From: a virus
Virus record (IMG/VR): IMGVR_UViG_3300030333_008604
Location: 32,001 to 96,000 of that record
DNA: 64,000 nucleotides
Strand: one strand, 5' to 3'
The position numbers and the translations under genes were made by a program. The notes below the pieces were generated by a model. That model had not been told where the DNA came from, did not search any database, and saw nothing but the letters and a program-made list of their open reading frames with translations. Position 1 is the stretch's first letter, and every line of letters begins with the position of its first letter. Below, piece after piece: positions 551 through 62,683 of this stretch.

Positions 551-552
551 AG

Positions 553-10572: not shown

Positions 10573-10573
10573 A

Positions 10574-13113: not shown

Positions 13114-13117
13114 AAGG

Positions 13118-32939: not shown

Positions 32940-34736
32940 ATGGCAAAGGATAGTAAAAAATTAATACGATACACAAACAGAGATTTTGATAGTATTAAAG
33001 ACGGCTTACTTCAGTATGCTAAAAGATATTATCCAAATGTCCATAAAGACTTTTCAGAGGCATCGTTTGGATCGATGATGCTGGACACCGTAGCCTATGT
33101 TGGGGATGTTCTTTCTTTTTATCTAGACTATCAAGCCAACGAATCGTTTGTCGATACTGCGATAGAATATGATAATGTATTGAGGTTAGGTCAACAGGTT
33201 GGATACAAAGAGGCCCTTCGCGCAAACGCGTTTGGTCTAGTTTCATTATATGTATTGGTGCCTTCTGATCCGGTAGGCACCGGTCCCGATTCAAACTATA
33301 TACCAATTTTAGCAAAAGACACAAAAGTATCAACTCCGGGCGGCAACATCTTTACTTTAATTGAAAATGTAGATTTTTCTAATCCTAACAATGAGGTTGT
33401 GGTCGCAACTAGCGACTCAGACGATGGCTCACCCACTTCTTTTGCGATTAAGGCTTACGGAAAAGTAATGTCTGGAGAATTAAAAGAAGAGTTTTACACA
33501 GTTGGGGATTTTGCAAGATTTTTAAATGTTCCCTTGGGAGACGCAAACATAACAGAAGTGGTGTCGGTGACAGACACCGAGGGGCACGAATATTTTGAAG
33601 TGCCGTATTTGTCTCAAGACACTGTTTTTCGAAGTGTCGTAAACAAGGATAGCAACACCAGAGAGCGCGTACCAAGCGTTCTGGTTGCAACGTCAGTCCC
33701 GCGACGATACACTGTCTTTGTCGAGTCAGGTCGCACTAATCTTAAGTTTGGATATGGCTCAGAATCTTCCTTAAAGTCTGATTTAATGACTCACCCTTCT
33801 AATGTTGTTTTAAAAATGCATGGTCGTGATTATGAAACAGACAACTCCTTTGATCCATCAAAACTACTAGAGAGCGACAAGTTTGGAATCGCTCCAGCCA
33901 ACACGACCTTAAGGATTGTTTATCGGTCTAATACAAATAAAAAAGCGAACGCCCCGGTGAAAACTTTAACGAATATCAGCAACACTTTATTGATTTTTGG
34001 CGACCAAGCAACAAACCAAACAAAAGTTAACTTTGTAAAAGATAGCCTGGAGTGTATTAACGAGGAACCAGTCGTTGGAGACGTCTCTCCCCCTTCTCTT
34101 GAAGAATTAAGGCAGCGCGTAAACGATACTTTTGCAACCCAAAACAGGGCAGTTACTGCTGACGATTATATTGCACTGGTTTATAGAATGCCCGGACAGT
34201 TTGGTAAAATTAAAAGAGCAAAATTAATCCGCGATCACGACTCTTTTAAGAAAAATTTGAATCTGTATGTTGTTTCGGAAGATTCGGAGCAAAATTTAAT
34301 TCAGAGTAGCACAATATTAAAAAACAATATCAAAACTTGGATTAACCAATATAGAATGATTAATGATACAGTGGATATTCTGGATGCTCGAATATTTAAT
34401 ATTGGTATAAATTTCACCGCGGTTGTAAATTACGACCAGGAAAAGTTTGAAGCACTGAACATCGCACTGACAACCCTGCAAGAGATGTTCGTTGAGAAGT
34501 TTGATGTTGGCCAACCAATATACATCACCAAAATATATGATGTTTTAAACCAGCTTGATGAAATAGTTGACGTTGTGGACGTTGAGATTGTCAACAAGAC
34601 CGGTGGTTTGTATTCAGATAACAGTTTGGATTTAAATCACTTTACTTCTGCTGACGGTCGCATACTTTATGCTCCCGAGAATGCTATTTATGAGTTTAAA
34701 TATCCAGATTTAGATTTTCAAGGAACCATAAGATAA
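32940..34736 (+). CDS. Baseplate wedge protein, T4 gp6 / baseplate J family
   Basis: YTNRDFDSIK, DFSEASFGSMMLD..AYVGDVLSFYLDYQANE, LKFGYG, QNRAVTADDY. Confidence 0.9.
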   Translation: MAKDSKKLIRYTNRDFDSIKDGLLQYAKRYYPNVHKDFSEASFGSMMLDTVAYVGDVLSFYLDYQANESFVDTAIEYDNVLRLGQQVGYKEALRANAFGLVSLYVLVPSDPVGTGPDSNYIPILAKDTKVSTPGGNIFTLIENVDFSNPNNEVVVATSDSDDGSPTSFAIKAYGKVMSGELKEEFYTVGDFARFLNVPLGDANITEVVSVTDTEGHEYFEVPYLSQDTVFRSVVNKDSNTRERVPSVLVATSVPRRYTVFVESGRTNLKFGYGSESSLKSDLMTHPSNVVLKMHGRDYETDNSFDPSKLLESDKFGIAPANTTLRIVYRSNTNKKANAPVKTLTNISNTLLIFGDQATNQTKVNFVKDSLECINEEPVVGDVSPPSLEELRQRVNDTFATQNRAVTADDYIALVYRMPGQFGKIKRAKLIRDHDSFKKNLNLYVVSEDSEQNLIQSSTILKNNIKTWINQYRMINDTVDILDARIFNIGINFTAVVNYDQEKFEALNIALTTLQEMFVEKFDVGQPIYITKIYDVLNQLDEIVDVVDVEIVNKTGGLYSDNSLDLNHFTSADGRILYAPENAIYEFKYPDLDFQGTIR

Positions 34737-36664
34737 TGGGTATTAAAAAATATTATGCCATACGAGACAACACGATTACAAATGCGTTTGATTTAAATCT
34801 TGCAACCCGCGGGACAGGCTCGAACATGGGCGCTGCGGATATTTTAGAAGTTTTTTCTATCTATGGGCAAAATACAACTTCATCGGCAGAGCTTTCGCGC
34901 GTTTTAATTCAGTTTCCTGTCACTTCTGCATCTGGAATCAAGGAAGACAGAGCAAGCGGCATCTTACCTGCATCTGGCAGTGTTAGTTTTTATTTAAGAA
35001 TGTTTAACGCTCGACATTCTGAGCAACTGCCCTCTAAAGCTAAATTAAACATTCTAGCAGTTTCTTCTTCTTGGCAAGAAGGCTATGGCTTAGACATGGA
35101 AGGCTACAGCGACAAGACAAAAGGAACTATTGACGGCTCAAATTGGATGCGCGCTCAACGAAACGATATTTCTGCGACTGGGAAGTTAATACTTCAAGGT
35201 GGTGCGAACAAAGCAACAATGCATAATCAAACTTTTACTTTGACTGATACTGCTGGCACAAGCCAGGAGTTTACATTTACCATTTCCAACGATACGGTTA
35301 CTGGTGGTACAATTGGCATGTCCAGCGACTCAAACACAACAGCTATCATAGATTCCATCAAGTCAGCAATCAATAACGTAACTTCTTTAAAAATAACTGC
35401 AGGAACTGCGGTACCAACAGGGGACGCAGATTCAGAAATGACGCTCCCTTTGACACAAGACGACACAGGCATAGCTGGAAACACGGCGATAGATGTAAGC
35501 AGCGTTGCACATTTAACATCAGTGCCTTTTTCTGGAGGCCATGGCCTTTGGGCCAAAGCCGGCGGCGATTATCACACATCTCGGGAAGAAGCTCACCACT
35601 CTGCAGTGATCTATTCTGCCGATTTTGAAGAAGGAACGGAAGATCTTGAGATCGATGTTTCTGAGTTGGTTGAACAGTGGATAAAAGGCCCATCATCAAC
35701 TGGAAAAGAAGATTACGGTTTTGGTATATTTTTAACATCTAGCCAAGAGGCTTATCAATCAAATGCAAGTAGTGCAGACGAGGACGAGATTCTTCACAAT
35801 CCAGGAGGCTCGACAACATCATTCTATACTAAAAGATTCTTTTCAAGATCTAGTGAGTTCTTTTTCAAAAGACCTGTTATAGAAGCGCGTTGGGATTCTA
35901 GAGTGCTCGACGATAGAAATAATTTTTATGCTAGTAGTAATTTGCTGAGTACTGCAGACAACACCTACAAGCTCTACATGTACAACTATGTGCGTGGCGT
36001 TTTGAAAGATGTGCCAAGCTATGCATCCGGCGCGATATCTGTAAGAGTATACCCCAGCTCGAACGATGTACCTCAGGAGTATGAAGATGAAAGTAAATCA
36101 AATCATTTAGCTCAATTTACAGCCACAAAAGAATCCACAGGTATATACTTTGCTGAGGTCAAGCTTGACACTACGTCTTCTGTCTTGCATGATGTCTGGT
36201 ATAAAACTGCTGACATAGCGGTGCAATACAGGACCGGCTCTTTACCAGTCAAGACTCACTCCCCTTTGGTGTCCGACGATTATTCAGAGTATGCGTCAAA
36301 AATAACTAATTTAAAACCAAAGTACACCAACAAAGAGACAGCGAGATTTAGAGTTTTCACTCGACCTAGAAATCATGACTACACGGTGTATTCTGTCGCC
36401 TCAAAAGAAATAGATGGCGTAACCATACCTTCTGCCTCTTTTCAAATATTGAGAATGGTAGATAGAGAGACGATTATTGAGCATGGAACAGGTAGTAGCG
36501 ATTATCATACTTACTTGTCTTATGACAATTCTGGTAGTTATTTTGATCTAGATATGAATATGCTTGAGAAAGGCTATATGTATGGCATCAAGCTGGCATA
36601 TTATACTTCTGCCGGCTGGCGAGACCAAGAAGAGGTGTTTAAATTTAGAGTGGAAGATAATTAA
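34736..36664 (+). CDS. Baseplate-associated structural protein (DNRLRE-like beta-sandwich with inserted domain)
   Basis: DNTITN...SRVLIQF...WQEGYG...IDVSELVEQWI...YGFGI...RPVIEARWD pattern; TAATG-coupled to gp6. Confidence 0.6.
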   Translation: MGIKKYYAIRDNTITNAFDLNLATRGTGSNMGAADILEVFSIYGQNTTSSAELSRVLIQFPVTSASGIKEDRASGILPASGSVSFYLRMFNARHSEQLPSKAKLNILAVSSSWQEGYGLDMEGYSDKTKGTIDGSNWMRAQRNDISATGKLILQGGANKATMHNQTFTLTDTAGTSQEFTFTISNDTVTGGTIGMSSDSNTTAIIDSIKSAINNVTSLKITAGTAVPTGDADSEMTLPLTQDDTGIAGNTAIDVSSVAHLTSVPFSGGHGLWAKAGGDYHTSREEAHHSAVIYSADFEEGTEDLEIDVSELVEQWIKGPSSTGKEDYGFGIFLTSSQEAYQSNASSADEDEILHNPGGSTTSFYTKRFFSRSSEFFFKRPVIEARWDSRVLDDRNNFYASSNLLSTADNTYKLYMYNYVRGVLKDVPSYASGAISVRVYPSSNDVPQEYEDESKSNHLAQFTATKESTGIYFAEVKLDTTSSVLHDVWYKTADIAVQYRTGSLPVKTHSPLVSDDYSEYASKITNLKPKYTNKETARFRVFTRPRNHDYTVYSVASKEIDGVTIPSASFQILRMVDRETIIEHGTGSSDYHTYLSYDNSGSYFDLDMNMLEKGYMYGIKLAYYTSAGWRDQEEVFKFRVEDN

Positions 36665-36686
36665 ATAAGAATGCTGGGAACATACC

Positions 36687-39600
36687 ATGAGCGTAAAAGA
36701 TTTATTTGACAAAGGCCACTCTCTAAAGTTTATCCGCAAACAAACTCACAATGACGTGCGTGATGATGTTGAGTCGAAGCGGTTTATCGAAGCATATTCT
36801 GAAAAGCGCAGAAGATTCTTTCCTAATGTTGACTTTACAACAGCTTCTAATTTCGCAAGATATGGGTCAGCGGAGCTTTATTACGATTCAGCAATTAAAC
36901 GGATATACCAGACCTATCCGTACGATGGCTCCTTGGCAGAAAAAACTGAATGGGAGAATGATAGCAATTATTTAGACGCATTTATTTTTCAAAATGAGTA
37001 TCCTCGCGTCAACGGCCATATAACACTCAACAGCGGCTCAAATACTTACACTGCTGAATCTTCTTTAAATGTATACAGCAGCTCTGCTCCGCAATATATT
37101 CTCTTTTCAGGTGGCCCTCACGCCGACCCAGCAGGAAATTTTAAAGATCCTGTTGCGAGCGGCCCAGAACAGCCTGGCGTGTCTAAAGTAAATATATATG
37201 AAGCGTCCTCTGCAAGGACAAACAACTTAGAGCTAGATCTGGCCAAGGGTATAACTTTTGAATTTTGGCTTAAAAAAGATTCTTGGGTCGACACATCAAC
37301 TGTAAAATACGAATACTTGTTTAACCTTGTCGCCTCAGGAGCCACAGGCGATCAATATGGAAACTTAAGAGTTTACTGTAATGGTGTTTCCAAGGATGAT
37401 CTTAGATTAATAATTAATTCTGGATCAACAGAACTAGAGTTCCTTCACGAGACTGGACTGTCTGGCCAAGGTATTGCTGACGGGAAGTGGCGCCATTATG
37501 CGTTTACTGCAGCGATAACTGGCTCCTCCACCATAAGTAAAATGTACTTAGACGGCGTTTTAAAATCATCTGTGATCGATTCGGATACGATTAACCCAAT
37601 TGACGGCAAGATGGTCGCCGCCATCGGCGCTCTAGCAGGACCTAAAGCGATAAATCTCGCACAAGCTGGACGCGGCTGGGGTAATGCTGTTGACGCTCAT
37701 TTTGACGAATTTAGATATTGGAAAACAGAACGCAACGCGCAAGATATTGGGAGGTTCTACCGACAACAGATCGGCGGCGGAACAAATACTGATAATATAA
37801 AATATGATAAAGTTCACAATCCAGTCGATCTTGGTGTTTATTACAAGTTCAACGAAGGAATTACTGGCCAGCCCAACACTGATTCAATCATATTGGATTA
37901 TTCTGGTCGTATTTCAAATGGCGATTTTATAAATTATGACTCCACGACTTCAAGAAACTTAAGTTCTGCTATGGTCACGGCAGGCGCCTCACCAGCAGAA
38001 TTTAAAGACCCTATTTTATATTCTTTCCACCCAGAAGTCTCTGCATATCATACAGCAAAACTAACATCTGGTTCATTCTGGGATGAAGAAAACTCGGCGA
38101 TGCTTTTAAAAAGCTTTCCGGGCTGGATTACAGAAGAAGACGAACAAAAATCTAACAATCTAAAATACATGGTTCAGATAATTTCTAGCTTTTTCGATGA
38201 CGTTTATCTGCAAATGGAATCTTTGCCTCGACTCAAAGATATAAACTATCCTTATGATAACGATCCAAAATATGAAAAGCCTCTGGCCTTCGCTGATCGA
38301 CTTCTTACTCATCGTGGCATCGAGGCACCGGAGCTTTTTGCAGATGCGTCATTGTTGGCAAAATATTTAAATCGTGACGAACAAAGACTATTTGAAAAGA
38401 AATTATACGACGTTAAAAACACAATTTATCAAAACATATATAACAACCTCACGTATTTGCAAAAAACCAAAGGCACGCTTAAGTCTTTGCGCAACTTTTT
38501 AAGGTGTTTTGGTGTTGATGAAGACCTCGTCAAACTTAACATTTATGCATCTGGCGAGACATTTGAATTAAAAGACAATTTTACTTATACTTCATTAAGA
38601 AAAAAATATATAGATTTTGATGACTTGGAGACCAGGTATGAGAAGACCGGTAAATATATAAATTCTTTTGAATCAACCGCCTATCAATACTACGATACTG
38701 GCATAACAGATTCTCTTTCTTATATACCAGGAATATCCAGGGCCCTGGCCTCGGGCAGTTCTGCCACTATGGAAGTAGAAGTGATATTCCCCAAAAGGCA
38801 CGTAGCTAATGACGATAACTATAATCTTTTTCCTGGTTATGATTCGTCGATTTTTGGTCTACATGGCGTAAAGCCCTCGAATACAGACTTGAGCTACTTA
38901 GATGGCACTGGGGCCGACGTTGGAACTGACGATATTAACTTCCACTTAAAGGTTCAGAAGTCCAAAAATGACAAAAGAGATGGAAAATTTGTTCTTTCAA
39001 CGACTGCACCATCGAACGGCGACCACGTTTTTCCGGAATTAGAAACAGCTAGTTCATATTCTAGAATTTATGATAATGAAAAGTGGAATTTTGCAGTTCG
39101 TCTGCGACCGTCCAAGAACCATGGCGGTCTCGTTACCGGCAGTTTTGAGCCTATTAGCAGTGCTTACGTTTTAGAGCTTTACGGGGTTAACTACTTATCG
39201 AATATTTTACAAGAAGAGTTCGTTCTAAGCAGTTCAATCAGTTTTGAAACTGCAATTAAGTTCTTTGAAAGGCCAAAAAGAATTTTTGCCGGCGCTCGGA
39301 GGAACAACTTTACTGGCTCCGTGGCCACACATTCAGATGTTAAAGTCGCCTCAGTAAGATATTGGCACGACTATTTGACAAATGACACGATTAAGGCGCA
39401 TGCTTTGGACTCTTTTACTTATGGCGCCGGCAATCCTTACAAGAATGACAACTTTTTCTCAAAATTTTCACACAAATCTATTCCGCAAATAGAAAAATTG
39501 GTCATGGACTGGACAGTTGAAAACGTTACTGCTTCCGGAAGGTCCGGAGAGTTTTCAATTACTGACTTTTCATCCGGCTCAAGAGGCAACTCAAGCAATA

Positions 39601-42600
39601 GATACGGTGATTATAGAACTCTACTGAATTCTCACTATCCAGCCAAGGGAGATTTCTTTGTTACCGGGTCAGATCAAGCAGTTGACGTCGAATTTGTCCC
39701 AACTGGTAAACAAAAGCTACCAGAAATCGTAAATAGCGACGACATGGTCAAAGTTTTAAATAGATTTGATGATGTTAACTTCATTCGAGACACAACTTAC
39801 GTTCAGCACCATCTTTCAGTAGAAAAAAGCATGTATCAGGTCATTTCGGAAGAAATGTTGAGATTTTTTGCTACAATTGTCGACTTTAACAACTTGATTG
39901 GTGAACCAGTTAACAGATATCGTCCAAATTATAAAAAAATAGACAAACTGCGCGATCTTTTCTTTGAAAAGGTGGAAGAAGCCCCGGATTTAGACAAATT
40001 TATTGAATATTACAAGTGGATTGACGATGCAGTTTCGTTAATGATTTTCCAACTAATTCCAGCTTCGACAAACAAGGTCGAAGTACTGCGAAATATGGTA
40101 GAGAGTCATATTCTTGAGAGAAATAAGTACTGGTCTAAGTTTCCCACCCTAGACAACAAAACTCGCGAACCATTTGACCCTATTTTGGGCATTAACGAGA
40201 TGTTGTATAACTGGAAGTTCGGACATGTAAACCCCGGAAGCACAGAAAGTGATAGTTGTCTATGGTGGAAGTCCAGAGCAGAGCGTGGGATTCTTTATGT
40301 AGATCCAGGCAGCGTCGATCCGTCAAAAACAACTCTTTCTTCTAGTGTTGTTGACGTTAATAATACAAAAAACACTCTATTGCGCAGAATAAACACAACA
40401 TCGCCTGTTGTTGGCACAAATATGCGCCCTCAAGATGACCCAACGTTTTTTACTGATGGCGGAGACAGTTATTCTGCGCCCACTTACAAAATAAGGGCAC
40501 TTTCTAGGCCGGTTCGCATAGAAAAAGACCGGGCCTTGACTTTGAAGGGCGGCCCAAACTCAAAAGTTAATAAAAAATATGATCTTTACAAAAACGCTGT
40601 AAAATGGGCTAGTGATGATGATTTTCTTTTTATGGATTTGGACAACCAGCTTCCTATAAAAGACTGCAATGACCAATATACGCCAGAAGAGTTAAACAAG
40701 AAGATAGCTTATTTCAAGTCATCAATAGAAACTGCAGGTGACTTAACAGATACAGTCCTTGGCGGCAACACAGCCCGGGCAGAATATGACGATCTTAAGA
40801 GTGAACAGCTTTTTCCATTTAGTATATACACGTCTTCTATTGAGGATGGCTATAAAAAGCCTGGATATATCAATGCGCTTGGAACAAACGCTCAATTTAG
40901 AACTGACTTTAACAACTACCACCATGATTATTACGGCCCGGACGCAGAAATACCGATGCAGGGGCCGTTTACTCGGGCAAATGTTGGAGGCATGCAACAC
41001 CGACATGCAGAAATCAATCGCTATTCTACTCTAAAGGGCAATTTTAATAATCTAGATTCTGCCCTCGACCGAGCAGAAGGTTGGGCTCTGTATAATAATC
41101 TTACTAGGCCGCGAAGTCTTGAAAGTCAATATATTTTAAACGAATATTTTCACGCTGGCACTTATGCTGGCCACCAAGACCACGTCCAGCTAAGAGGAGG
41201 TAACAGCGATACAGCGGGAGGCATGCACGGGAATGTGTATCTTGAGCCTAGTGCGTATGAAATGTGGGCCGGTGGTGTAGATTGCGGTACCTTGCACGCT
41301 TGGACATTCAAGAGAGGCACGACACCCTCGTTTGGTACTGGTCCGACCGTCAGCGCTAGTGAAAGGTTTGCTTATTGTGAAGTCCTGCCAGAATATGCGC
41401 AACAGACTTTTGGCTTGAGAACTCCTTTAATTGATTTCTTGGACTTGTCTACTGACTCCGGAGAAGTATATTTTAAATTTGACTATCACATGCATGGTGT
41501 TAATATAGGCACCTTGAAGGCTCAAGCGTCTACTGACCCAACTTTTGCTAGCGATGTGACGGATATCTTGCTTAGGTGGGATCATAGCGGCACTCCAAGT
41601 CAGGCAACCAGCCTTACTGGAGAGCAGCATGCCAGTTCAACTGACGCATTCAAATCTGCATATGCCACAGCAAACTATCCTTCATATGGCAACGGCCTTC
41701 AAGATTTTCTTGGAAAAAGATTTTATATAAGATTTCTTTACACTGCTGGTATTGGCCATCTTGGAGATTGCGCGATTGATAATGTGGCCATCTATCAGGG
41801 CGACTCTGCGAAACAAAACAAAGGTGACTCCTGGCGCTTGTTGCACCCCACACACGACAACATAAGCCAACCACACGCTATGCTTTTCCGTGAAGAAGTA
41901 GCAAAGCGCCCTGTTAATATTAGAAATATAGAAATTACCAGTTCCTCACCAACCAAAGCTGGTAACTATTTTCATAGATATCAATACTTGAATATAGGCA
42001 ACCGCGCGGCCAATGATCCGTGGTTTGTCAAGAACCATACAGAAGTCTCAAGCCGTACTTCCTCAATGGGCCCCCTTTCAATGATCGGTACCGGCTCTAG
42101 TATTACAAATATATTAAACACTAGGCTTGATCCCGTAGTTGGCGGTCGAGCACCTTCGACTGACAGCTTTGTTTTGCCGGAGCGCGAGTTCCTCAGCGGC
42201 ACAGTGCGCAACAAGACAAGATTTGTTGCTCATTTTAGCTCACCTGGAGATCATGAAAGCTTGTCTAGGGGCTACCTTGATCGCGAGCATGAGAGTTTTT
42301 CTGTCTACAATGCTATGCCATGGCGAAACAGATTTATTCGGCAACAGCATACTTCACAATTAACTGCGCATATGGGCAAATTTGGCACTAGTACACATGG
42401 CCCAACTTCTACATCAGCTAGAGTTTTTGGAGACGAGGTCGTCGGCAGCACTCGAAGCGATGATTATTCAATAAATGGAGATGCAGCTAGACACAAATAT
42501 CACTCAAACTCCGTACAAAGAATTGAACAGTCGTCTTCTTATGGAATTGCTTCAAGCAAGGGCGCATCTTTTAATGGTACAAACGATTATCTTGCTGTTG

Positions 42601-43445: not shown

Positions 43446-43451
43446 TGTATA

Positions 43452-43466
43452 ATCTAATTATTAGAT
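43452..43466 (+). promoter_or_regulatory. Candidate late-promoter motif inside the palindrome ATCTAAT-T-ATTAGAT
   Basis: Intergenic; contains CTAATTAT (43454-43461); TATAAT at 43448-43453; SD downstream. Confidence 0.4.
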
Positions 43467-43482
43467 GGAGTTGAGGTAAACA

Positions 43483-49902: not shown

Positions 49903-50888
49903 TGGAGTTTTTTAACAAAAAACAAGACGTAATTGACATACAAATAACTCCTTTTGGGCGACACTTAATGTCTAGGGGCGTTTTCAACCCAGTGTATTAT
50001 TCTTTTCACGATGATGCAGTTCTGTATAACTCTGAAAAGGGGGGCTTTTCTGAGGAACAATCAGACTCCCAGGCCAGAATTAAAGAAACGCCGCTAGTGA
50101 AAAGCGCGACGACATTTTCTTCTCTTGAGAAGAAATTTGCATATCAATATGGCCAAAAAATATTTGAGTCTAAAAAGTTTGATTCGAAAGCGATGCAGCC
50201 AACTTCAGAAAAGATGTACTCGCTCTGGACCTCGATCGGCACCAGCGACCTAAATAGTGATCCCGCGCCAGCAGTGCACCTAACTTTCCTAAAAGGCAAC
50301 ATGAGCGGGTCTTTTTCAAAAACCTGGAATTTAAAAGGCCAGGATGGTGGTATCAATACGCGGCACATTCCACAACTTAAGGCTGATATCGAAATTGAAT
50401 ATAAAAATATATCACCCAATGACGACGCGTTCTACGAGTATGAGACAGGCGTCGGATATGATTTCGCGCTAGTGACCCCACCAAACGAGGCTTATTTTTT
50501 AATAAAAGTGGGCGAAGAATTTGCTCCATATCAAAAAGAAAATTTTGACATTGAAGTTTTTGAAATAGTGGAGAACGAGGCGGGAGATTTGACGGAGCAG
50601 GTCTTGCGACAATTATCTTTTTATCCAAAAGAAACAGAAAACGAAATTTTTAGTTGGTTGGACGAACCCACGCCACAAGACGACCCAAATTACGTTAACC
50701 ATTATTTTGACCTACTTGTAGACTCAGAAATAGACGACAAGATTATATGTTCTCTTGATCCTGTTTCGAAAACAAAGGGTCATTTTGCAGACAGAAAAAC
50801 AGAATTCTGCAACGATCTTCTAGACGACGAGGTCAAAACTTATGATATATACGAAAAAGAAGTTGACGACCCAGGGGAGGTATGCTAG
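49902..50888 (+). CDS. Structural protein (328 aa), N-terminal paralogue of 59068..60216
   Basis: MEFFNKKQDVIDIQITPFGRHLMSRGVF...FHDDAVLY aligns with MAFLDNSGDIILDAVLTDTGRLRLSQGDGSF...LGDDEINY. Confidence 0.7.
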   Translation: MEFFNKKQDVIDIQITPFGRHLMSRGVFNPVYYSFHDDAVLYNSEKGGFSEEQSDSQARIKETPLVKSATTFSSLEKKFAYQYGQKIFESKKFDSKAMQPTSEKMYSLWTSIGTSDLNSDPAPAVHLTFLKGNMSGSFSKTWNLKGQDGGINTRHIPQLKADIEIEYKNISPNDDAFYEYETGVGYDFALVTPPNEAYFLIKVGEEFAPYQKENFDIEVFEIVENEAGDLTEQVLRQLSFYPKETENEIFSWLDEPTPQDDPNYVNHYFDLLVDSEIDDKIICSLDPVSKTKGHFADRKTEFCNDLLDDEVKTYDIYEKEVDDPGEVC

Positions 50889-50891
50889 ACT

Positions 50892-53800: not shown

Positions 53801-55844
53801 AGGTTATTCATATTTGACTCCTTCGATAATCAACATATCAGACCCCGGATCAGGAGATAATGCTTATTCTTTTAGATATTCTGTTTTTCGCGAAAATGTA
53901 ACAGACTGGCTCCGAGGTTTTAACGAGACCTATGCCCTCAAAAACCTGGCTAAGAACATGGACAACGAAGATCTTATGCAGAACTGGGCTCTTCAGTATT
54001 TGCAATATTCCCCTTTGTGGAAACAAGATTTTTATGATTTTGGATATCAAGACGATGTGCTCCTGTCTATGATACTTTACAGCAACGACACAGCAGAACA
54101 AAATTATATAGATATGGCAAATCCTAATTTTGACATAAGCAAATGGGACGAGTTTAAAGAAGAGCCCGACATGCTCCCCGGCGCTCAAAAATATTATAAT
54201 TCAAAAGGGTTGTATAATAGCTTTTTTAGCTCTCACAATATTGTAGTTCATAGTGAGGCAGCCTATAATGATATTTTTCTCAAAGAAGCTGGAGCGACAC
54301 CGTTTCTTTCTGAATCCATGGAGACTTGGAGAAACGAACAATATGGCAAAACCGGGGCATATTTTTCAGACGCAGGCTTGGAAACGCAAGTCTTGTTTAA
54401 GAATCTTATAGCAAATCCAGACTATGGCACTGTTTTTACTAAGGTACCGCGCGGCAACCATGAGCCCTACAACACCTCTGGAATCCCCATGTACTTGACT
54501 CAAGGCGGCTGGAGTGGATACGTAGGGGAAGACCAATGGCTTGGAGGCTACGCGACAGATCAAGGCGATACTATTAAAGAATGGGGCCCCATGACCGGCT
54601 ATAATGAAATGCTTCCTAATCAGTTTAAACTTTGGTATGCTTTCAAAAAATATATGGCGAGACTTGATAATAAAAATAATCCTGGAGCATTTCTTGCCGG
54701 CATGGCCGGCTCGCAGGATGGAAGAACAATTACTCTATTGACAGACGTATACATCCAAGGCCTGGCAGTTGGCGATACCTGGGTTTCAATGCTTCCTGAC
54801 GCGTACGTCGAAGGCGCAGATGTTGTCAAACCTGATCAGCACGCAAATGGCTTTAAGTTTCTAAATTTTAATATGACAGCTAAAATCGAAGTATTTACTG
54901 GATATGGAGAAATGGAAACAATATGCTCTACAACTGGCCGGGTAATAAAAATGCACGCCGCGCAGGATGATAGATGGGCGCTGCTAACAACAGAAAGGCT
55001 CCGAGGCGCTTCAATGGGAAGCTATACCACAGCAGCGGGGGGCTCTGGTGTTGCTGATGCTGATTTTATTCACCCTCTTTTGTGTAGAATAAGCTATTTT
55101 GATCCCACTTTGGTTGGAAATGTTGAAAATATTCCGGTTTTAAACAGCTATTTCTTTATTGATAAAAGTGGTGCTCCTGTACCACCCTATGTGGAGCCTG
55201 ATTTCGGTGATTTGTACGATCAAAGTCCAGAAGAATGGTATGGCGAAAATCACGAAGAAGTTGAAGAATGGATCACCATGTTAGAAAAAGGCCAACAATC
55301 AGAAGGTCAAGCAACTGGAGAAATGGGCGCTTTTATGGACATGGGCGAAAACCAAGGTGGCGGAACTTCTCTGGGTGTTGGAATCGACATTTTTGGCGGC
55401 GGCGAGCCCGATCCCGATGCCGGCACCGGCACCGGAGTCGGGATACCCGTTATACCAACTGATGGCACGCCCGGCGGAGGTATGGGCGGTCCTGGCGGAG
55501 GCCCGTTTGGCGGCTTGATATGGCCAGTTGGCAACCCGGCTGGAGGCGGTGGAGTTGGCCCCGCTGGTAGCCCTGCTGGTCCGACAGGAATGCAAGGAAT
55601 GGATATGGGCGGCGACACCGGTGGCGGCGCTGAGGGGATTTCAACAGCACTTATCGGCGCTGGCCTTCTTATGGCAATGGGTCAAGCCAATATGGGCGTC
55701 GGAGCCGACGGTGGTGGCTTAGCAACAGAAGGCGTGGGTATGGATGCCGGAGGCACCGATTTAGACGCTGCTGGAACAGGAATGCAGGGCGCAGCAGCTA
55801 CTATGGCTGGATTTGGACAAAACAACAACGACGCTGGCTATTAG
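50892..55844 (+). CDS. Large structural protein (1650 aa) with Gly/Met-rich low-complexity C-terminus
   Basis: Long ORF with GGGGAGG SD; last ~170 aa dominated by G, M, A and P. Confidence 0.78.
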   Translation: MSDALDYLVGDLVPAVRIRKIFIEESSNEDRPILVRVKLGLYIKKDQLLEKSWLANVPLPSPDMDASNILDAMFLRKARIFGLSNINNLRYSNQAAIENAPTGVHRASNRENSGVWMGHGQNPHIVPDPSAPVGPHDLSGHASGLKHVENLEGGHQGTVYGAAAANQVEIEDVSVKVGSIAGNLNVSALDTAGTAQDVLGPQVAEGKIFEEVKNGVMYYVIPFEDTYTLREGFNENGDKHLSERIAHEYFGVAYYCYLDVNSILDLGLDESVIQGQATSAIVFRDGQIPQTRQVLRDENGKVHHGDWHFHFPPYAAVDQIGLSGPAPDGYIGYMAGRSHVGSRYQPKLTLVDSPNYLITNARNRINEIKLASGVFSGVPGSVFQTKPSALTGVSVSVSDLQTKAGEISKTATAAVAATLAEAGGVGASATHPAGTSGFAGPFGMTPWEKSNKRNIVKDNDAEFSKLYLARSVRNEARGFFYIDVATLLKNQSKLFKNFGARIQNNFDNNLTSEVWKRSKILELRLYRERVEFKKGTEDLYKKFLQYKPEEEPKKLIGTLTQVGIGGLGGTVEGATSWSAFVPESVNGDKFYINATHVHAENLAPGARPLYVTFHDREVDGFASGLYMYSVEVDFQDGTPQFLHEHLQELLQIRLTLSQYLEFSKGSKGTVIATFDPNGESIDKRRNIPWYNRHIREFRPDFPAEIESINKNAPMFRINEQPVWQAAAQKIVDLLNLFVDTGVKAGLSAQMTQGDLDASMSDLANYLAAIASPYMEGSPEGIQYLLAMADETYERLSKLLRAHETASESSGGGVGTGDISTPNQLSVLPEDFYQVAINPARSIIYEKHEFDGPGECFRAVTNEYAYVDFLSLDEEIDISPTYTSIPGIDAGDGLLTLTPAYYMARCRMDSAKMSIFAVKDIWWEAKGDMGTNFTGNIHPYAKQYYNAQGMGSDDGALEEVGQDNWDSLSRTGYSYLTPSIINISDPGSGDNAYSFRYSVFRENVTDWLRGFNETYALKNLAKNMDNEDLMQNWALQYLQYSPLWKQDFYDFGYQDDVLLSMILYSNDTAEQNYIDMANPNFDISKWDEFKEEPDMLPGAQKYYNSKGLYNSFFSSHNIVVHSEAAYNDIFLKEAGATPFLSESMETWRNEQYGKTGAYFSDAGLETQVLFKNLIANPDYGTVFTKVPRGNHEPYNTSGIPMYLTQGGWSGYVGEDQWLGGYATDQGDTIKEWGPMTGYNEMLPNQFKLWYAFKKYMARLDNKNNPGAFLAGMAGSQDGRTITLLTDVYIQGLAVGDTWVSMLPDAYVEGADVVKPDQHANGFKFLNFNMTAKIEVFTGYGEMETICSTTGRVIKMHAAQDDRWALLTTERLRGASMGSYTTAAGGSGVADADFIHPLLCRISYFDPTLVGNVENIPVLNSYFFIDKSGAPVPPYVEPDFGDLYDQSPEEWYGENHEEVEEWITMLEKGQQSEGQATGEMGAFMDMGENQGGGTSLGVGIDIFGGGEPDPDAGTGTGVGIPVIPTDGTPGGGMGGPGGGPFGGLIWPVGNPAGGGGVGPAGSPAGPTGMQGMDMGGDTGGGAEGISTALIGAGLLMAMGQANMGVGADGGGLATEGVGMDAGGTDLDAAGTGMQGAAATMAGFGQNNNDAGY

Positions 55845-55860
55845 AAGTAGGAGATGAAGA

Positions 55861-58800
55861 ATGTCTAGTGGCAACATAATCGGAAAAAACAAAATAATGG
55901 TTACAGACACCTCCTATGGCGCTCTTCCCGGCGAAGAGTGGTGGCAGCATGGTCCTGGTATTCATTTGCGCAAAAACCCTGCTACTGGTTATTCGTACGA
56001 TGACGACAACCCTGCCAAGGACCAAGCTCAAGGTTCTGATTCTGTAAATCATCTAGCTTCAAACGCCGGCTCTCCAGCGGGCTTGTTTACTCAAGACCGC
56101 TTGCGATGCGCTCTTGGAGCTAGTTGGTCTAACAGGTCATCAACGCCAAGAAGTTTGCATCATTATCCGGATGGCGAACCGCCCCTCGGGTGGAATAGCG
56201 ATCCTAATACTGAATACACTTTTGATAATTTACGAGGCGCCTGGAAAGACTCTGCTATTTTGACAAATACACCTGGCGGTTCTTATGGCGATAAATATAG
56301 GGTTTTCTATGGTAAAACTTTGGGCCTTATTTTTTGTAGCGATAAGACATCTTTAAGTGGTGCCCCTCAAGGTTTATTAGAACCCAACCCGAACGATTCA
56401 ATTTGGGAAACAACTAATGCATTTTGGCTGGAAAACAATGTCCTAACAACAAGAACAGTTGAAATAACAGCCAAAATTGAAATAAATGAAAGCGCCGCTT
56501 ATAGTTACTGGTGGCCAAGATCTGACGAATCAGAAGGCATCGAGCGATGGAAGCGTTTAATTCGAAGTGGCAAGGATATGGCTGATGGTACGTATTATCC
56601 GCCAATTATTGATGATACAAAAGTGTACAAAGATCACTATCACGAGTGTTCATACCCCTTTACAAAAAGTGAAATAAAAAACAACAACATCACCGGAAAG
56701 AGCTTGATGGCAGATGTCACAACTTATTATGACAGCGTGATGGGCTATTCCGGAGGCTCAGGTGGTGCGACACTGGTGCACCCCGATCTTCAATCTTCGG
56801 TGATACCTAGATTTTATGAAAATTCAATTGCTAAGGGCGGCACGTTTTTTAGTACTTGCTTGCCTAATATTTATGGATTTTTGAGCCTGGTGAACGGAGA
56901 GTTTGATCTTGAGAAATTTTATTCCCAAATTTCAGGAATTTCTCATGGCTCACATCCCGATGGCTACCAAACAATGGATTACGCTGACGAGTGGTACCCT
57001 TTTGTACGAGATTTTCCTTTTGAGATGTTGATTACTCTTGGTGGCCTTGTTGACAAAACAGCGATCCAGTCTGTCTTAGCGTCGAACTCCAATAATACAG
57101 CTATTGACTCATATTTTGAAGATTATTTTAATAACCTGGCTTATTGGTTTTCAACTTCGCAATCATCTCCCGACATAAAGGAAGATTTTAATTATTATAA
57201 GAAGATTTTGTTGGAGTCTAAATTTAAAAATATTATATTCAGCAGCGGCATGATGCCAACAATGAATATGGTGAACAAATATAAAAAATATTTTCCATTT
57301 TATTCAGAATTGCAGTTTTCTACTCAAACACTGACCGGCGTCGGGGATATGATGGGCAAAATGCTTCAAACAAGTCTGTTTGCTACAAAAATAGCTGAAT
57401 CAAATTCTTCTAATGTTTGCGCTCGCTGGCACCACGAAGATTCTCAAAATATAGTTATAACATTTCCTAATTCCGCCACCGTCGGCACATTTGTAAATCA
57501 CTATCAGCAGGACATATATAGTGACTTTTCTACTGCGACTCCTGTTTACAGCTCTGGCGATTTAGTAACATCAACTAACAAAGTTTATGATATTTTTAGC
57601 ATACTCGCAGGCCCCAACGGCGTAATCGAAAGTGACGATTACTATGCCGAGCCCGATATCGAAACTCAAGCAGGAAGAGATAGTATAAAAAACTTTACTG
57701 CATACTTGAGAGACGAAAAAAGCGAGGCTTCAACTCCTTCTGAACTAAATAATGCTATTCGAACTTTCTTGGGCAAGGGATTTGGAGCCTACTTGGTGAA
57801 GAAATATAAAGAAAATTATCGTGACTATGAAGACATACTTAAAGGCGTTCCAGCCTACACTGAAGATGTTTTTTATAGAATCGAGAAGTGGGAAAAATTT
57901 GTCAGCCAGTCAGATGATGAGTGGAAGCACGTTTCCAACACGATCGTACCAAATACCTCTGATTTAAATTTATTTAAATATGTCGATACGCAAGTAAAAT
58001 ACGGAGGAGACACACAACATTATGAAGGTACTGTATATCGTTATAATGTTTATGTTTATAGGCTTGTTTTTGGCGCAAAATACAAATATATGTGGCCAGG
58101 CGGCAACCCAATTGGCAAAACAGTAACAAACAGAAATGCTATAGATTATGCGACCTATCATGCCACGTGTGACGTACTCGTCGCACCCGACTTGGTAATG
58201 ATTGAGGACTTGTACTTCGCATCACCCGTTGTTTCAGTTCTGGATTCTCCTCCTCCTCCTCCGCAAGTAAACATAGTCCCGTTCAGGGCTGTTGATAACA
58301 AGCTTTTGTTTATGATGAATGGCTCCGTTGACACATATCAAGATCACCCAATTTCTATTTTGCCGGCCGACGATTCTGCTTGGCAGAAAGTAAGAGAATC
58401 TCAGCTAACATCTACGGAGATTTATGTCGATCCGCTTAGTGATGGTACTTATATTGGAGGCCCTAAAATTCAAGCGTCACAAAAGGGGAAAGTTAAATTT
58501 TCTTCAGATGATGTCGCAAGCAGCTTTCAGATTTTTAGATCTTCTACGCCTCCCAAGAGCTATAGAGATTTCGACTTGTATGTGGACAATCTAAACGAAA
58601 ATACGTTCATAGAAGAGAATATTTTTCCAAATAGAAAATATTATTACACATTTAGGTCAATTGACAGTCATGGTCACATGTCGAACCCTACAGCAATTTA
58701 TGAGGTTGAGTTAATATCTGAGCAGGGCGCTGTAAAGCCCAAGATAAGACATTATATGTTTCCCGAGCATGCTGCTGAAACCCCTGCAAAGGGTTGTCAA

Positions 58801-59016
58801 AAATATATTTATATAAAACCTTCCCTAAAGCAGATATACTCTAAGGAAAAGACAGAAGATTTAGACTATATGTTTACTGAGCCTCCGTATGGTGATGCCG
58901 ACGGAGTAGAAGACCCTAACTCAAAAAGAAGATTCAAGATTCGTCTAACATCTAAGAGCACTGGAAAGAAAATTGATTTGAACGTCGCTTTTGTGAAAAA
59001 AGCGCACTTAACTTAA
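55861..59016 (+). CDS. Large structural protein (1051 aa) with C-terminal fibronectin-III-like segments
   Basis: AGGAG SD; FYRIEK...YVDTQVKY...YRYNVY and SPPPPPQV...FQIFRS...PNRKYYYTFRSID..G..S FN3-like patterns. Confidence 0.72.
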   Translation: MSSGNIIGKNKIMVTDTSYGALPGEEWWQHGPGIHLRKNPATGYSYDDDNPAKDQAQGSDSVNHLASNAGSPAGLFTQDRLRCALGASWSNRSSTPRSLHHYPDGEPPLGWNSDPNTEYTFDNLRGAWKDSAILTNTPGGSYGDKYRVFYGKTLGLIFCSDKTSLSGAPQGLLEPNPNDSIWETTNAFWLENNVLTTRTVEITAKIEINESAAYSYWWPRSDESEGIERWKRLIRSGKDMADGTYYPPIIDDTKVYKDHYHECSYPFTKSEIKNNNITGKSLMADVTTYYDSVMGYSGGSGGATLVHPDLQSSVIPRFYENSIAKGGTFFSTCLPNIYGFLSLVNGEFDLEKFYSQISGISHGSHPDGYQTMDYADEWYPFVRDFPFEMLITLGGLVDKTAIQSVLASNSNNTAIDSYFEDYFNNLAYWFSTSQSSPDIKEDFNYYKKILLESKFKNIIFSSGMMPTMNMVNKYKKYFPFYSELQFSTQTLTGVGDMMGKMLQTSLFATKIAESNSSNVCARWHHEDSQNIVITFPNSATVGTFVNHYQQDIYSDFSTATPVYSSGDLVTSTNKVYDIFSILAGPNGVIESDDYYAEPDIETQAGRDSIKNFTAYLRDEKSEASTPSELNNAIRTFLGKGFGAYLVKKYKENYRDYEDILKGVPAYTEDVFYRIEKWEKFVSQSDDEWKHVSNTIVPNTSDLNLFKYVDTQVKYGGDTQHYEGTVYRYNVYVYRLVFGAKYKYMWPGGNPIGKTVTNRNAIDYATYHATCDVLVAPDLVMIEDLYFASPVVSVLDSPPPPPQVNIVPFRAVDNKLLFMMNGSVDTYQDHPISILPADDSAWQKVRESQLTSTEIYVDPLSDGTYIGGPKIQASQKGKVKFSSDDVASSFQIFRSSTPPKSYRDFDLYVDNLNENTFIEENIFPNRKYYYTFRSIDSHGHMSNPTAIYEVELISEQGAVKPKIRHYMFPEHAAETPAKGCQKYIYIKPSLKQIYSKEKTEDLDYMFTEPPYGDADGVEDPNSKRRFKIRLTSKSTGKKIDLNVAFVKKAHLT

Positions 59017-59039
59017 TAAAACATAAACAAAATTATTGA

Positions 59040-59047
59040 CTACTTAT
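59040..59047 (+). promoter_or_regulatory. Candidate late-promoter motif CTACTTAT
   Basis: In the largest intergenic gap (51 nt) of the structural module, just upstream of the GAGGAG SD. Confidence 0.4.
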
Positions 59048-59067
59048 TATAGTGAGGAGTAAAGAAT

Positions 59068-60216: not shown

Positions 60217-60227
60217 GGTAAAAAACT

Positions 60228-61433
60228 ATGGCAAGCACATTTAAAACATTGTTAAACGATGACGTGGTAAACACCAGGACGTTGTTGCATGAATCAATAC
60301 CCCTTACGGGAACGATCTGCTCTGGTACATATCAAGACATTAATATTAAGAATTTTTCTCATGGAATGTTCCAATCAGTTTACGATTATCCGTATTTAAG
60401 CTCTTCAGCGAACCATGTGTTTGACTTTACTTATGGGCATAGTTCAGATATATCTTCTTCAATTGCAACCGCTGCTAATAAGACAGGGGCCCAAATTCAA
60501 AAAAAGACCAACATGTATAATCAAATGGCGCAAATGCTCATAGGTTATGATGAAACTGGCGCAATCAGAAAATTTGACTCTGATGGCAATGGTGATAGTT
60601 CTGATGGTACCATGCATAACTGCTTTTTCTTGAATTTTTCACGATTGCTTGTTAAAGATGAGATTAAAAAGGGCAGCTTTAGGTTAGCCATGTATTTAAG
60701 CGGCAGCGAGGCTTATGTCGACCCCGGAGATGGAGTCGCTGGCAAGGGCGCCACGTCAGGAACTTACCAACATGAAGTAACTTTGGGTGATTATGACGCC
60801 TTAAACGAATACAGGTCATCACCATCTGGTGATTATGGTTTGATTTTTAAGTCTCAAGCCGATTCTACGACGAATACGAATAGCGTTGGTTTAATCTTCT
60901 ATCAGGCCGGTATTGTTGTATTGACTTCTTCAATAATTAGCGGACATTTTGTTGGCCCAGCCGGCTCGAATAACGACGGCACTGTAGCAGATAAATATCA
61001 TGCAGCTAATCATGTCATCAACGGTGGTACGCCATCCGGAGGAGGGGCGAAGCTCGAAGAAGGCGGTGGCGCCGGCGTGGGCGCAGATACGTGTGTGTCT
61101 CATGCAATTACATCGGGCACAATCGCGCAGCTAGCAGACGCATTCCGTTTTAAAGTAAGATCAATTGACTTTAACAACACTGTTGAGCTTAATTCCTCTA
61201 TCTATTTCTGTAGATTAAACCACAATGAATTCAATTATAGCGCAAACCCGACTTACGTTTCAGGCGGAAAAATTGCGGTCAAGAATAATGTTAATGATCT
61301 ACCGGTCACTTATTTGACCACAGTCGGTCTTTATTCTGCCGATAACGAATTGTTGGCTGTTGCTAAGCTTTCTGAGCCGATTAGAAAAGATCCAAATACC
61401 GAGCTTACTTTGAGGGTCCGCTTAGATTACTAA
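60228..61433 (+). CDS. Structural protein (401 aa), paralogue of 61448..62683
   Basis: IKKGSF, VGLIFYQAGIVVLT, NEFNYSANPTY, TYLTTVGLYSADNELLAVAKLSEPIRK. Confidence 0.72.
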   Translation: MASTFKTLLNDDVVNTRTLLHESIPLTGTICSGTYQDINIKNFSHGMFQSVYDYPYLSSSANHVFDFTYGHSSDISSSIATAANKTGAQIQKKTNMYNQMAQMLIGYDETGAIRKFDSDGNGDSSDGTMHNCFFLNFSRLLVKDEIKKGSFRLAMYLSGSEAYVDPGDGVAGKGATSGTYQHEVTLGDYDALNEYRSSPSGDYGLIFKSQADSTTNTNSVGLIFYQAGIVVLTSSIISGHFVGPAGSNNDGTVADKYHAANHVINGGTPSGGGAKLEEGGGAGVGADTCVSHAITSGTIAQLADAFRFKVRSIDFNNTVELNSSIYFCRLNHNEFNYSANPTYVSGGKIAVKNNVNDLPVTYLTTVGLYSADNELLAVAKLSEPIRKDPNTELTLRVRLDY

Positions 61434-61447
61434 AGGAGTAGTGATTT

Positions 61448-62683
61448 ATGCCCTCTCATGAGTCTAAAAATAGTAATTTTTTCAAATTTGGCAAAGAGGA
61501 CGTTTTTCGCAATCGGTTAAAGACGTACCCCCATTGCAGCTTTTTCATTTATACTGGATCCATTTACTATAATGATAAGACACAGAATAGTGACAATTAT
61601 CATACCCCAGATGGCTGTATAAACTTATATGAATTAAACGTGAGCAGAAATGATCACCCAACAGCTGCTGACATGGAGTTAATTTATCCTTTTGTTGAGA
61701 AAAGAGGCAGCCTCTCTAGTTTTAAAACAATTAGCGCAACGAGCTATGCACAGGACTTTGCATTCGGGGATCTTGTAACAGGCTCTTATCCTTTAACTTC
61801 CTCAATATCCATAAACAGGTATGGCAATTCGTTAACGAGTGATAAAAAAAGAGTTCTTTACGCGCTAAGAACAACTCTCGACAGATACTCTGGCTTAAAC
61901 GATCATTATGCATATTCTTCACCCACGCATGGAGAAAAGGAAAGTCAATATTTAAACCTTATCAGCATACCTTCAATTTTTTATGGATCAGGCATTAAAA
62001 AAGGTTCTGTTAGTTTAAAATATTTTATTACGGGAAGTCTTTTATCTGAAGCGTCGGATATTCATAAAGATGGTCGCTTGATTCAAACATCCGGAGCTTT
62101 TACCGGTCATACTGTTGGTGTTGTCCTCTATCATGAAGGCTTCATAATGTTAACAGGAAGCGCAGACTTAAAAACTACCACTGATCACGCCACTCATGTG
62201 GAAAATTATAACCCTGTCTCGCCATTTACAGCAAATGCAAATTGGCAAAACTGGGGTGTTCAAGACGCCGCGCACGTCAGTGCTACGCAACCTGGCGGCG
62301 CGCCCTCATCAAGCTTTTCTTTGGACTTTAAAGGTACAAACTACGTCAACACTGTAACAATGTTGGCCCATGCTGAAAGAAATGAGCTTAATTTTTCTAA
62401 TAATCCTACTTTTCTTTCTTCCGTAAGTGAGCTAGGGACTGAGCAAAACTTTAACGCGTCTTACACGTCTAGTTCTTATGCTGAGTCGCCCAATCTCAAG
62501 ATTCAGAATATAGTTTCGAGTAGTTATCAAGGTTATACAGCTAGCTTTAAACCAATCACATATATAACTAAAATAGGAATTTATGATAAAGATAAGAACC
62601 TTATTGCGATTGCTTCTTTGGCCAATCCCGTTAAAAAAACAGAAGAAACAAACTACACATTTAAATTAAAGCTTGACATATAG
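61448..62683 (+). CDS. Structural protein (411 aa), paralogue of 60228..61433
   Basis: IKKGSV, VGVVLYHEGFIMLT, NELNFSNNPTF, TYITKIGIYDKDKNLIAIASLANPVKK. Confidence 0.72.
   Translation: MPSHESKNSNFFKFGKEDVFRNRLKTYPHCSFFIYTGSIYYNDKTQNSDNYHTPDGCINLYELNVSRNDHPTAADMELIYPFVEKRGSLSSFKTISATSYAQDFAFGDLVTGSYPLTSSISINRYGNSLTSDKKRVLYALRTTLDRYSGLNDHYAYSSPTHGEKESQYLNLISIPSIFYGSGIKKGSVSLKYFITGSLLSEASDIHKDGRLIQTSGAFTGHTVGVVLYHEGFIMLTGSADLKTTTDHATHVENYNPVSPFTANANWQNWGVQDAAHVSATQPGGAPSSSFSLDFKGTNYVNTVTMLAHAERNELNFSNNPTFLSSVSELGTEQNFNASYTSSSYAESPNLKIQNIVSSSYQGYTASFKPITYITKIGIYDKDKNLIAIASLANPVKKTEETNYTFKLKLDI

Follow-up and report, generated by a model that had tools for sequence, protein, structure and literature searches.

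Serine-rich repeat adhesins receive O-linked N-acetylglucosamine (O-GlcNAc) from GtfA/GtfB, and Ser-Asp repeats are glycosylated by SdgA/SdgB. Systems of the GtfA/GtfB type consist of a conserved pair of enzymes with the glycosyltransferase family 4 (GT4) fold, followed by variable extending glycosyltransferases; their acceptors are long low-complexity repeats, in which small residues stand on either side of the modified serines. Chloroviruses and mimiviruses decorate structural proteins by means of their own sugar-nucleotide and transferase genes. Mycobacteriophage virions are O-glycosylated by phage-encoded glycosyltransferases (Freeman et al. 2023, as cited in PMC12619734), and the account given there places the glycans at the C-termini of capsid and tail-tube subunits. 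The autotransporter heptosyltransferases Aah and TibC are described in PMC4358343 as cytoplasmic enzymes that hyperglycosylate many patterned surface serines of the beta-rich adhesins AIDA-I and TibA. Here we describe a short amino acid motif, [ST][GAS]S, in the tail proteins that a marine phage encodes in a 64,000-base window (bases 32001-96000) of the 122,942-base IMG/VR virus record IMGVR_UViG_3300030333_008604, which is about 68% complete. The motif is concentrated in five tail proteins and depleted in their neighbours, and the same window encodes glycosyltransferases of its own: two of GT4 type, as well as GT2 and GT11 types. Among the results listed by literature searches on the glycosylation of phage virions or tail fibres, none describes this motif.

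The five motif-rich proteins are designated by their length in amino acids. With overlapping matches counted, and with the expectation for each protein taken from 2000 composition-preserving shuffles, p642 has 11 motifs where 4.3 are expected (z 3.4), p2252 has 25 against 8.5 (z 5.7), p2139 has 19 against 8.4 (z 3.7) and p411 has 10 against 2.6 (z 4.6), four of them TGS. The count in p401, 4 against 2.0 (z 1.4), is not significant alone; this protein also has SGT at residues 32, 177 and 296. A preliminary description of this DNA had counted by hand about 11, 24, 19, 10 and 4 motifs in these proteins, with three SGT in the last and four TGS contexts quoted for p411, and had found the neighbours nearly free of the motif. 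These counts hold up closely, all four contexts are present, and enrichment survives the correction for composition in four of the five proteins. The neighbours are indeed poor in the motif, with 2 against 6.6 in the 3451-residue giant protein (p3451), 1 against 3.2 in p1650, none against 1.1 in the baseplate wedge protein gp6/J and none against 3.5 in p1051; the small protein p328 has 1 against 0.5. Pooled, the five proteins have 69 motifs against 26.2 expected (P 3e-12). Over the whole record, the other ten open reading frames (ORFs) of the tail module have 10 against 21.9 (P 0.004), the 54 non-structural ORFs 27 against 22.9, and the 16 head and neck ORFs 27 against 19.7, with TGS alone 10 against 3.5. 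Two proteins on the head and neck side, outside the window, lean the same way individually: an 865-residue fibre-like protein (record 109877-112471) has [ST]GS 6 times against 2.3, and a 433-residue head-tail adaptor-like protein (record 118096-119394) is at 5 against 1.1.

When residues are exchanged only inside 50- or 20-residue blocks, as a control for locally Ser-rich segments, z stays at 2.7-5.3 in the four significant proteins. The motifs are single tripeptides dispersed along the proteins, as was seen at the outset; this dispersal, and an excess that survives the 20-residue-block shuffles, mean that the proteins do not resemble acceptors built of long serine-rich repeats. As a control for the post hoc choice of the motif, all 8000 tripeptides were ranked in the pooled five proteins. 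TGS comes first (17 against 3.37, Poisson P 1.1e-7, about 9e-4 after Bonferroni correction) and SGS second (15 against 4.59); in seven neighbouring structural proteins TGS occurs 0 times against 3.1. Codons vary at the 17 TGS sites, with ACA, ACC, ACT or ACG for Thr, GGC, GGT, GGA or GGG for Gly and TCN or AGY for Ser, and the signal is therefore at the level of the protein, as had been proposed.

The residue preferences were determined in a pool of 139 distinct motif-rich sequences (112,820 amino acids) from the window and related contigs. At the first position SGS occurs at 4.8 times and TGS at 6.4 times the expectation, and the other 18 residues before GS reach at most 1.6 times. At the second position Gly (4.8-6.4 times) leads Ala (2.5-2.9 times) and Ser (2.1-2.7 times), and Lys, Glu, Arg and His are at 0.18-0.44 times. 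Ser at the third position (4.8-6.4 times) is followed by Thr (2.3 times), with everything else at 1.46 times or below. In 110 motif-poor tail proteins TGS is avoided (7 against 30, or 0.23 times), yet DGS, AGS and FGS stand at about 1.8 times. A hydrophobic residue occupies position -1 in 42-68% of the sites, which bears out an early impression that the motif often follows one, and position +3 in 38-71%, against a background of 31-33%. The pentapeptide hydrophobic-[ST]-[GAS]-S-hydrophobic is found 20 times against 2.5 in the five proteins and 0 times against 2.0 in six motif-poor proteins. Written out with its flanks and preferences, the motif reads hydrophobic-[ST]-[G>A,S]-[S>T]-hydrophobic.

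The division into motif-rich and motif-poor proteins recurs in the relatives of this virus. Orthologue sets were assembled from 50 viral loci found with p411, where ORFs of less than half the query length were left out of the counts, and from 26 found with p642; duplicate contigs contribute some identical sequences to the counts, and the distinct sequences, the window copy included, number 47 for p411, 41 for p401 and 18 for p642. The motif exceeds expectation in 49 of 49 p411 orthologues (485 against 118.2), 44 of 44 of p401 (354 against 102.5), 26 of 26 of p642 (330 against 82.7), 29 of 31 p2252-like relatives (884 against 269.9) and 4 of 4 p2139-like relatives (85 against 34.3). The p328 family is enriched as well (25 of 31; 46 against 16.8). 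Orthologues of gp6 are never above expectation (0 of 26; 14 against 36.9, and [ST]GS 0 against 9.9), and those of p1051 (7 of 40; 41 against 87.3), p1650 (1 of 6; 10 against 19.1) and p382 (14 of 44; 50 against 57.0) seldom are. A profile search of 1.84 billion representatives returned 2541 relatives of p411 at E<=0.001. The best 150 of them, mutually less than 50% identical, are all enriched (1482 against 359), 133 individually at P<0.01.

Within the families the density of the motif is kept through a continual turnover of its sites. In an alignment of 37 p411 sequences the motif occurs in 48 columns, of which 9 are occupied in at least 50% of the sequences, 1 in at least 90%, and 29 rarely. 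At 40-50% identity the Jaccard index of motif columns is 0.29-0.34, and each protein keeps 5-15 sites. Parsimony on maximum-likelihood trees requires at least 132 gains or losses in the p411 family, 124 in p401 and 71 in p642, so the gain and loss of sites, proposed as a check, is found in all three. A few sites are fixed or nearly so. Two p401 columns have the motif in 39 of 39 sequences, and in one p401 column TAS, SGS, TSS, TGS and SSS replace one another in all 39; TGS at residue 236 of p411 is present in 35 of 37 sequences, and T585-G586-S587 of p642 is invariant in 18. The window's p642 has about 130 extra residues, at positions 150-285 or so, which 17 of 17 aligned orthologues lack; none of its 11 motifs lies in this insertion. 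An all-against-all blastp comparison of the window's structural proteins linked only p401 and p411, and the five motif-rich proteins thus belong to at least three families; a shared repeat domain was rejected on this ground as the cause of the motif excess. The case named in advance as fatal to the idea, that the motifs are buried conserved turns of a common fold, is accordingly not what the families show.

Placement of the sites was examined in an AlphaFold2 (AF2) model of p411, built from 37 sequences, with a mean predicted local distance difference test (pLDDT) score of 68 and confident at residues 121-240 and a few other stretches. The three sites in confident blocks (residues 36, 195 and 236; block pLDDT >=81) are each predicted to open a loop, their first residue coming directly after a beta-strand. 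TGS36 and TGS195 are modelled as hairpins whose two loop residues are T and G and whose next strand begins at S; the other seven motif instances fall in regions of low confidence. Orthologues lacking the motif have polar turn or loop tripeptides at the same columns (DSK, NSQ, NGN, DGK, DGN, EED, KSP, DPK), so the sites are turns rather than buried core positions, and they are probably exposed. The p411 model has no match in the PDB by Foldseek at E<=0.001; VIA-align gave weak rows only (best Z 4.5, immunoglobulin-like sandwiches at Z about 3), from which no fold was assigned, and BFVD gave uncharacterised phage proteins only. A model of p642 (18 sequences, mean pLDDT 43.6) was left out of the site mapping.

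Among phages serving as controls, none of 21 virion proteins of T4, including gp34, gp37, gp12 and fibritin, is enriched at P<0.01, and the T4 total of 36 against 33.8 shows that the composition-based expectation is well calibrated. None of 21 virion proteins of siphovirus S-CBS4 reaches P<0.01 either. The nearest cultured relatives of the window virus, by a gp6 of about 32% identity over its full length, are Flavobacterium phage vB_FspM_immuto (immuto) and Microcystis phage Mel-JY01; we found no mention of the latter in the literature. In immuto 4 of 13 proteins examined are enriched at P<0.01, among them a 1053-residue tail spike with 60 against 20.4, and gp6 has 1 against 1.3. In Mel-JY01 the same holds for 7 of 14 proteins, and gp6 has 1 against 1.1. 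Rhodothermus phage RM378 has two proteins at P<0.01 (8 against 1.7 and 6 against 1.2), and several others lean the same way.

All three of these cultured relatives, in which proteins encoded after gp6 are enriched, carry the GT4 pair, which is core to the clade. Of 30 related records, 25 have an orthologue (53-68% identity) of the first of the two tandem GT4 genes of the window. Those with a completeness of at least 90% have it in 3 of 3 cases, and the five that lack it are fragments of 40-61% completeness. Two adjacent Glycos_transf_1 matches are found in 4 of 5 large relatives. Against the phage collection the GT4 protein matches only immuto, Mel-JY01, LR756508, RM378 and, distantly, S-CBS4. 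Many of the matches in related records contain one internal stop codon, though the open frames are 415-457 residues long; the stop probably reflects an alignment running past the end of the gene. The order nuclease-GT-GT is common to the window (2-4100), immuto (3965-7884) and RM378 (8212-11893), in the last of which the nuclease is annotated as 'similar to DNA polymerase I'. In the 595-kilobase (kb) phage LR756511 a gp6-like gene is present, GT4 is not matched at E<=0.01 and none of the 17 ORFs near gp6 is enriched, which fits a link between the transferases and the motif. S-CBS4 was dropped as an independent lineage for this link: it has no enrichment, and its GT4, at 22.8% identity, is too distant for inference.

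The island that follows the GT4 pair encodes two GT2 enzymes, two GT11 fucosyltransferase-like enzymes, a UDP-Glc/GDP-Man dehydrogenase, a nicotinamide adenine dinucleotide (NAD) synthase, two epimerases/dehydratases and a heptose-7-phosphate kinase domain (11672-12472; TIGR02198, 142.8 bits, below the cut-off of 345). Three ORFs of 251, 213 and 237 residues beside this domain (10574-13113) have no Pfam or NCBIfam match. The NAD synthase gene (7651-8427; PF02540, E 3e-52) lies inside the island; in immuto a gene annotated as NAD synthetase directly follows the tail spike genes. The sugar island after the GT pair of immuto is an altogether different one (aminotransferases, a methyltransferase and a mannosyltransferase), and RM378 has no sugar genes at this place. 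Of the 30 records, 20 have GT2, and of the 5 large relatives 1 has GT11; as these are patchy and the GT4 pair is widespread, we regard the island as variable and the pair as core to the clade. No match to PF01075, the family of GT9 and of the bacterial autotransporter heptosyltransferase (BAHT)-like enzymes, was found at E<=0.1 in the record at its completeness of about 68%. Modification of DNA is an unlikely purpose of the sugar genes. The record holds no gene of the thymidylate-synthase or hydroxymethylase families, and the analysis of digested immuto DNA by liquid chromatography with ultraviolet and mass spectrometric detection, as given in PMC10516641, lists dA, dC, dT and fdPreQ1 in place of dG, with no glycosylated nucleoside, so that the glycosyltransferases of that phage are unlikely to serve DNA glycosylation.

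The reading that best fits these findings is that the motif, under selection, tags the surface of peripheral baseplate and fibre proteins in this clade of myoviruses. Specificity at three positions, a small middle residue, location in turns, a density maintained through turnover and avoidance by neighbouring proteins point to a recognition sequence for a trans-acting factor. Since the GT4 pair supplies the only clade-wide candidate enzymes, an O-glycosylation sequon is ranked first among the possible roles; we hold this tentatively, as a candidate that could prove right or wrong. In such a mechanism, acting in the infected cell, the GT4 pair would attach the first sugar to Ser/Thr hydroxyls where strands pass into loops, the downstream island would make the donors and extend a lineage-specific glycan, and inner or non-target tail proteins would avoid the motif. 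The sequences themselves establish the enrichment, its dependence on three positions, its persistence through turnover, the scarcity of the motif in adjacent tail proteins and the conservation of the GT genes; sugar attachment, the enzyme responsible and a purpose of the glycan, such as shielding, stability or host binding, are what we infer. It is possible also, though we put it forward with greater reserve, that a whole, abundant aquatic myovirus clade, including phages of Flavobacterium, Microcystis and Rhodothermus, has an O-glycosylation system of its own, with a five-residue sequon, a GT4 writer, hypervariable islands and, on the baseplate periphery and fibres, a glycan coat particular to each lineage. 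The original suggestion of a modification sequon marking exposed subunits thus keeps circumstantial support from the GT4 pair, the sugar island and the depletion in neighbours, and 'exposed subunits' proved too broad a term: the major head protein, the most exposed subunit of all, is not enriched (2 against 1.6).

Besides the head protein, several observations weigh against this interpretation. A dipeptide-preserving shuffle leaves z at 2.3 in p2252, 1.9 in p2139, 2.2 in p411 and 0.8 in p642, although this null errs on the strict side, since the excess of TG, GS and SS that it preserves is produced by the motif. The structural mapping is based on a single model of medium quality, that of p411, and hydrophobic flanks and tight hairpins could limit the access of an enzyme. 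All matches of the GT4 proteins are to generic models and fall far short of the curated NCBIfam cut-offs; models for GtfA/GtfB are absent among the matches at E<=0.01, and SdgA reaches 20.3 bits where its cut-off is 800. A glycan or lipid of the host surface could be the acceptor of these enzymes instead. That the GT4 pair and the motif occur together reflects co-inheritance at the level of the clade and not a set of independent events. In RM378 the homologue of p401/p411 is not enriched (1 against 1.2), and in LR756508 (484 kb), which has a GT4 orthologue, 11 ORFs following gp6 total 14 against 7.9, none at P<0.01.

The excess might alternatively be purely structural or physicochemical: beta-rich proteins would favour uncharged hydroxy-small-hydroxy tripeptides at strand ends and in hairpins, for the sake of folding, trimer packing or solubility, with nothing attached. 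Much of the p411 evidence agrees with this. All three confident sites lie at strand-to-loop boundaries, two of them (TGS36 and TGS195) in tight hairpin loops, and orthologues exchange the motif for classical turn tripeptides of the Asn/Asp-Gly type (NGN, DGK and DGN, as well as DSK) at the same columns; strongly conserved sites such as TGS236 of p411 and the invariant site of p642, and the overall Ser/Thr richness of the five proteins, are also in its favour. A general preference of beta-rich structural proteins, however, is not what is found, as gp6, p1051, p1650 and p3451 are depleted. Such a preference predicts neither that other beta-rich tail proteins should be depleted two- to four-fold nor that T4 and S-CBS4 fibres should lack the motif; a turn that depends on Gly should reject Ala and Ser at the same columns, and the preference leaves unexplained how at least three families unrelated in sequence have kept the density in the course of more than 300 gains and losses. 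We regard a structural cause as the less likely of the two and as the most serious competitor of the glycosylation sequon. Chance, or an artefact of composition or of post hoc motif choice, has practically no claim. The lack of significance of p401 alone and the share of the excess absorbed by the dipeptide-preserving null speak for it, and it is refuted by the position of TGS at the top of the 8000 tripeptides and by replication in every orthologue set and in all 150 cluster representatives, with an expectation that proved well calibrated in T4.

A reader of another kind, such as a phosphorylating or acylating enzyme or an assembly chaperone, would leave the sugar island to some other task, for example remodelling of the host surface. 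The selected, protein-set-specific pattern calls for a reader and does not identify one, and the GT4 matches are generic; yet the family scans of the window gave no motif-linked kinase, acyltransferase or dedicated chaperone, and glycosyltransferases are the only clade-wide candidate enzymes seen beside the module. This makes another reader rather improbable. Less probable still, and in our opinion very doubtful, is that the sites form hydroxyl-rich patches which bind host polysaccharide as a receptor contact, with no modification. The confinement of the enrichment to peripheral baseplate and fibre proteins and the concanavalin A (ConA)-like lectin domains of p2252 would suit this explanation; but the sites are dispersed along proteins of 2000-3000 residues and occur also in the N-terminal and conserved parts of p642, and the motif is kept in phages of hosts as different as Flavobacterium, Microcystis and Rhodothermus.

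The layout of the window is given in the table. All long ORFs are on the + strand, and gp6/J is followed by proteins of 642, 2252, 2139, 328, 1650, 1051, 382, 401 and 411 residues; a RuvC-like resolvase and then a primase lie 3' of p411. No family in Pfam or PHROGs was found for p642, p2139, p401, p411, p1650 or p1051, and a weak sheath-like match of p642 (E 7e-4) is the only family signal among these large tail proteins. A blastn search with 32940-36664 and a tblastn search with p642 gave no match in the phage collection, and a protein atlas search with p642 returned unnamed viral clusters only. The C-termini of p411 and p401 share an almost invariant block (G377 to I386 in p411) that recurs at the ends of several proteins of Mel-JY01, immuto, LR756508 and RM378 and has no Pfam match. 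The 1304-residue protein that heads the tail module (16919-20833) has a weak Peptidase_M15_4 match at residues 1034-1089 (E 8e-4, below the cut-off) and may be a tape-measure or tail-lysin fusion.

Table. Positions of the main features, numbered from the first base of the window.
Feature	Position	Strand	Basis
PD-(D/E)XK nuclease	2-550		
Tandem GT4-type glycosyltransferases, the second fused to a GT2 domain	553-4100 (553-1821; 2058-4100)	+	Pfam PF00534, PF13692, PF00535
Variable sugar-gene island	4061-14961	+	Pfam, NCBIfam matches
Myovirus tail module	starts 16919		
3451-aa giant protein, motif-poor	22184-32539	+	
gp6/J baseplate wedge (598 aa), motif-poor	32940-34736	+	phrog_6, E 3e-20
p642, motif-rich, directly after gp6/J	34736-36664	+	
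p2252, motif-rich giant, fibre-like, with C-terminal Laminin_G_3 (ConA-like) domains	36687-43445	+	Pfam
p2139, motif-rich giant protein	43483-49902	+	
p328	49902-50888	+	
p1650 and p1051 (1650 and 1051 aa), motif-poor	50892-59016	+	
p401, paralogue of p411	60228-61433	+	
p411, motif-rich	61448-62683	+	

If the motif is indeed a glycosylation site, it would be the first sequon to be defined for the glycosylation of phage virions, and it would extend such glycosylation from the heads and tail tubes of mycobacteriophages to the host-recognition apparatus of very common aquatic phages. It would also explain the large and fast-changing sugar-gene islands of these phages and provide a sequence rule by which glycosylated virion proteins could be predicted from metagenomes. 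The idea can be tested directly in the cultured relatives immuto, Mel-JY01 and RM378. Should the sites prove bare, a tripeptide under selection that sets two classes of tail proteins apart is still a rule of phage protein evolution that calls for an explanation.

The known precedents work similarly and are not of the same family. Chloroviruses and mimiviruses share with this virus the possession of sugar genes, but they are giant viruses of eukaryotes, with other acceptors and linkages. The Aah and TibC systems, which act on many patterned serines at the surface of a beta-rich protein, offer a partial parallel, and the window encodes a heptose-7-phosphate kinase domain, the one part of an ADP-heptose donor pathway that was confirmed. 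No GT9/BAHT-like gene was detected in the 122,942 bases, the candidate writers are of GT4 type, and the acceptors would be tail proteins with no evidence of a beta-helix. The locus resembles GtfA/GtfB in having a tandem pair of GT4-fold enzymes with variable further glycosyltransferases after it, and in the small residues beside the proposed acceptor serines; it differs in that no equivalog model is matched and in that the acceptor sites would be single tripeptides dispersed in folded proteins. Compared with the mycobacteriophage system, to the extent that the source cited above describes it, the proposed sites form a short motif scattered over baseplate and fibre proteins, the major head protein shows no excess of it, and hosts, lineage and sugar genes differ. 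No tail tube was recognised in the record, which is incomplete. The likeness is that of a tailed phage with its own glycosyltransferases, whose virion proteins are the proposed acceptors.

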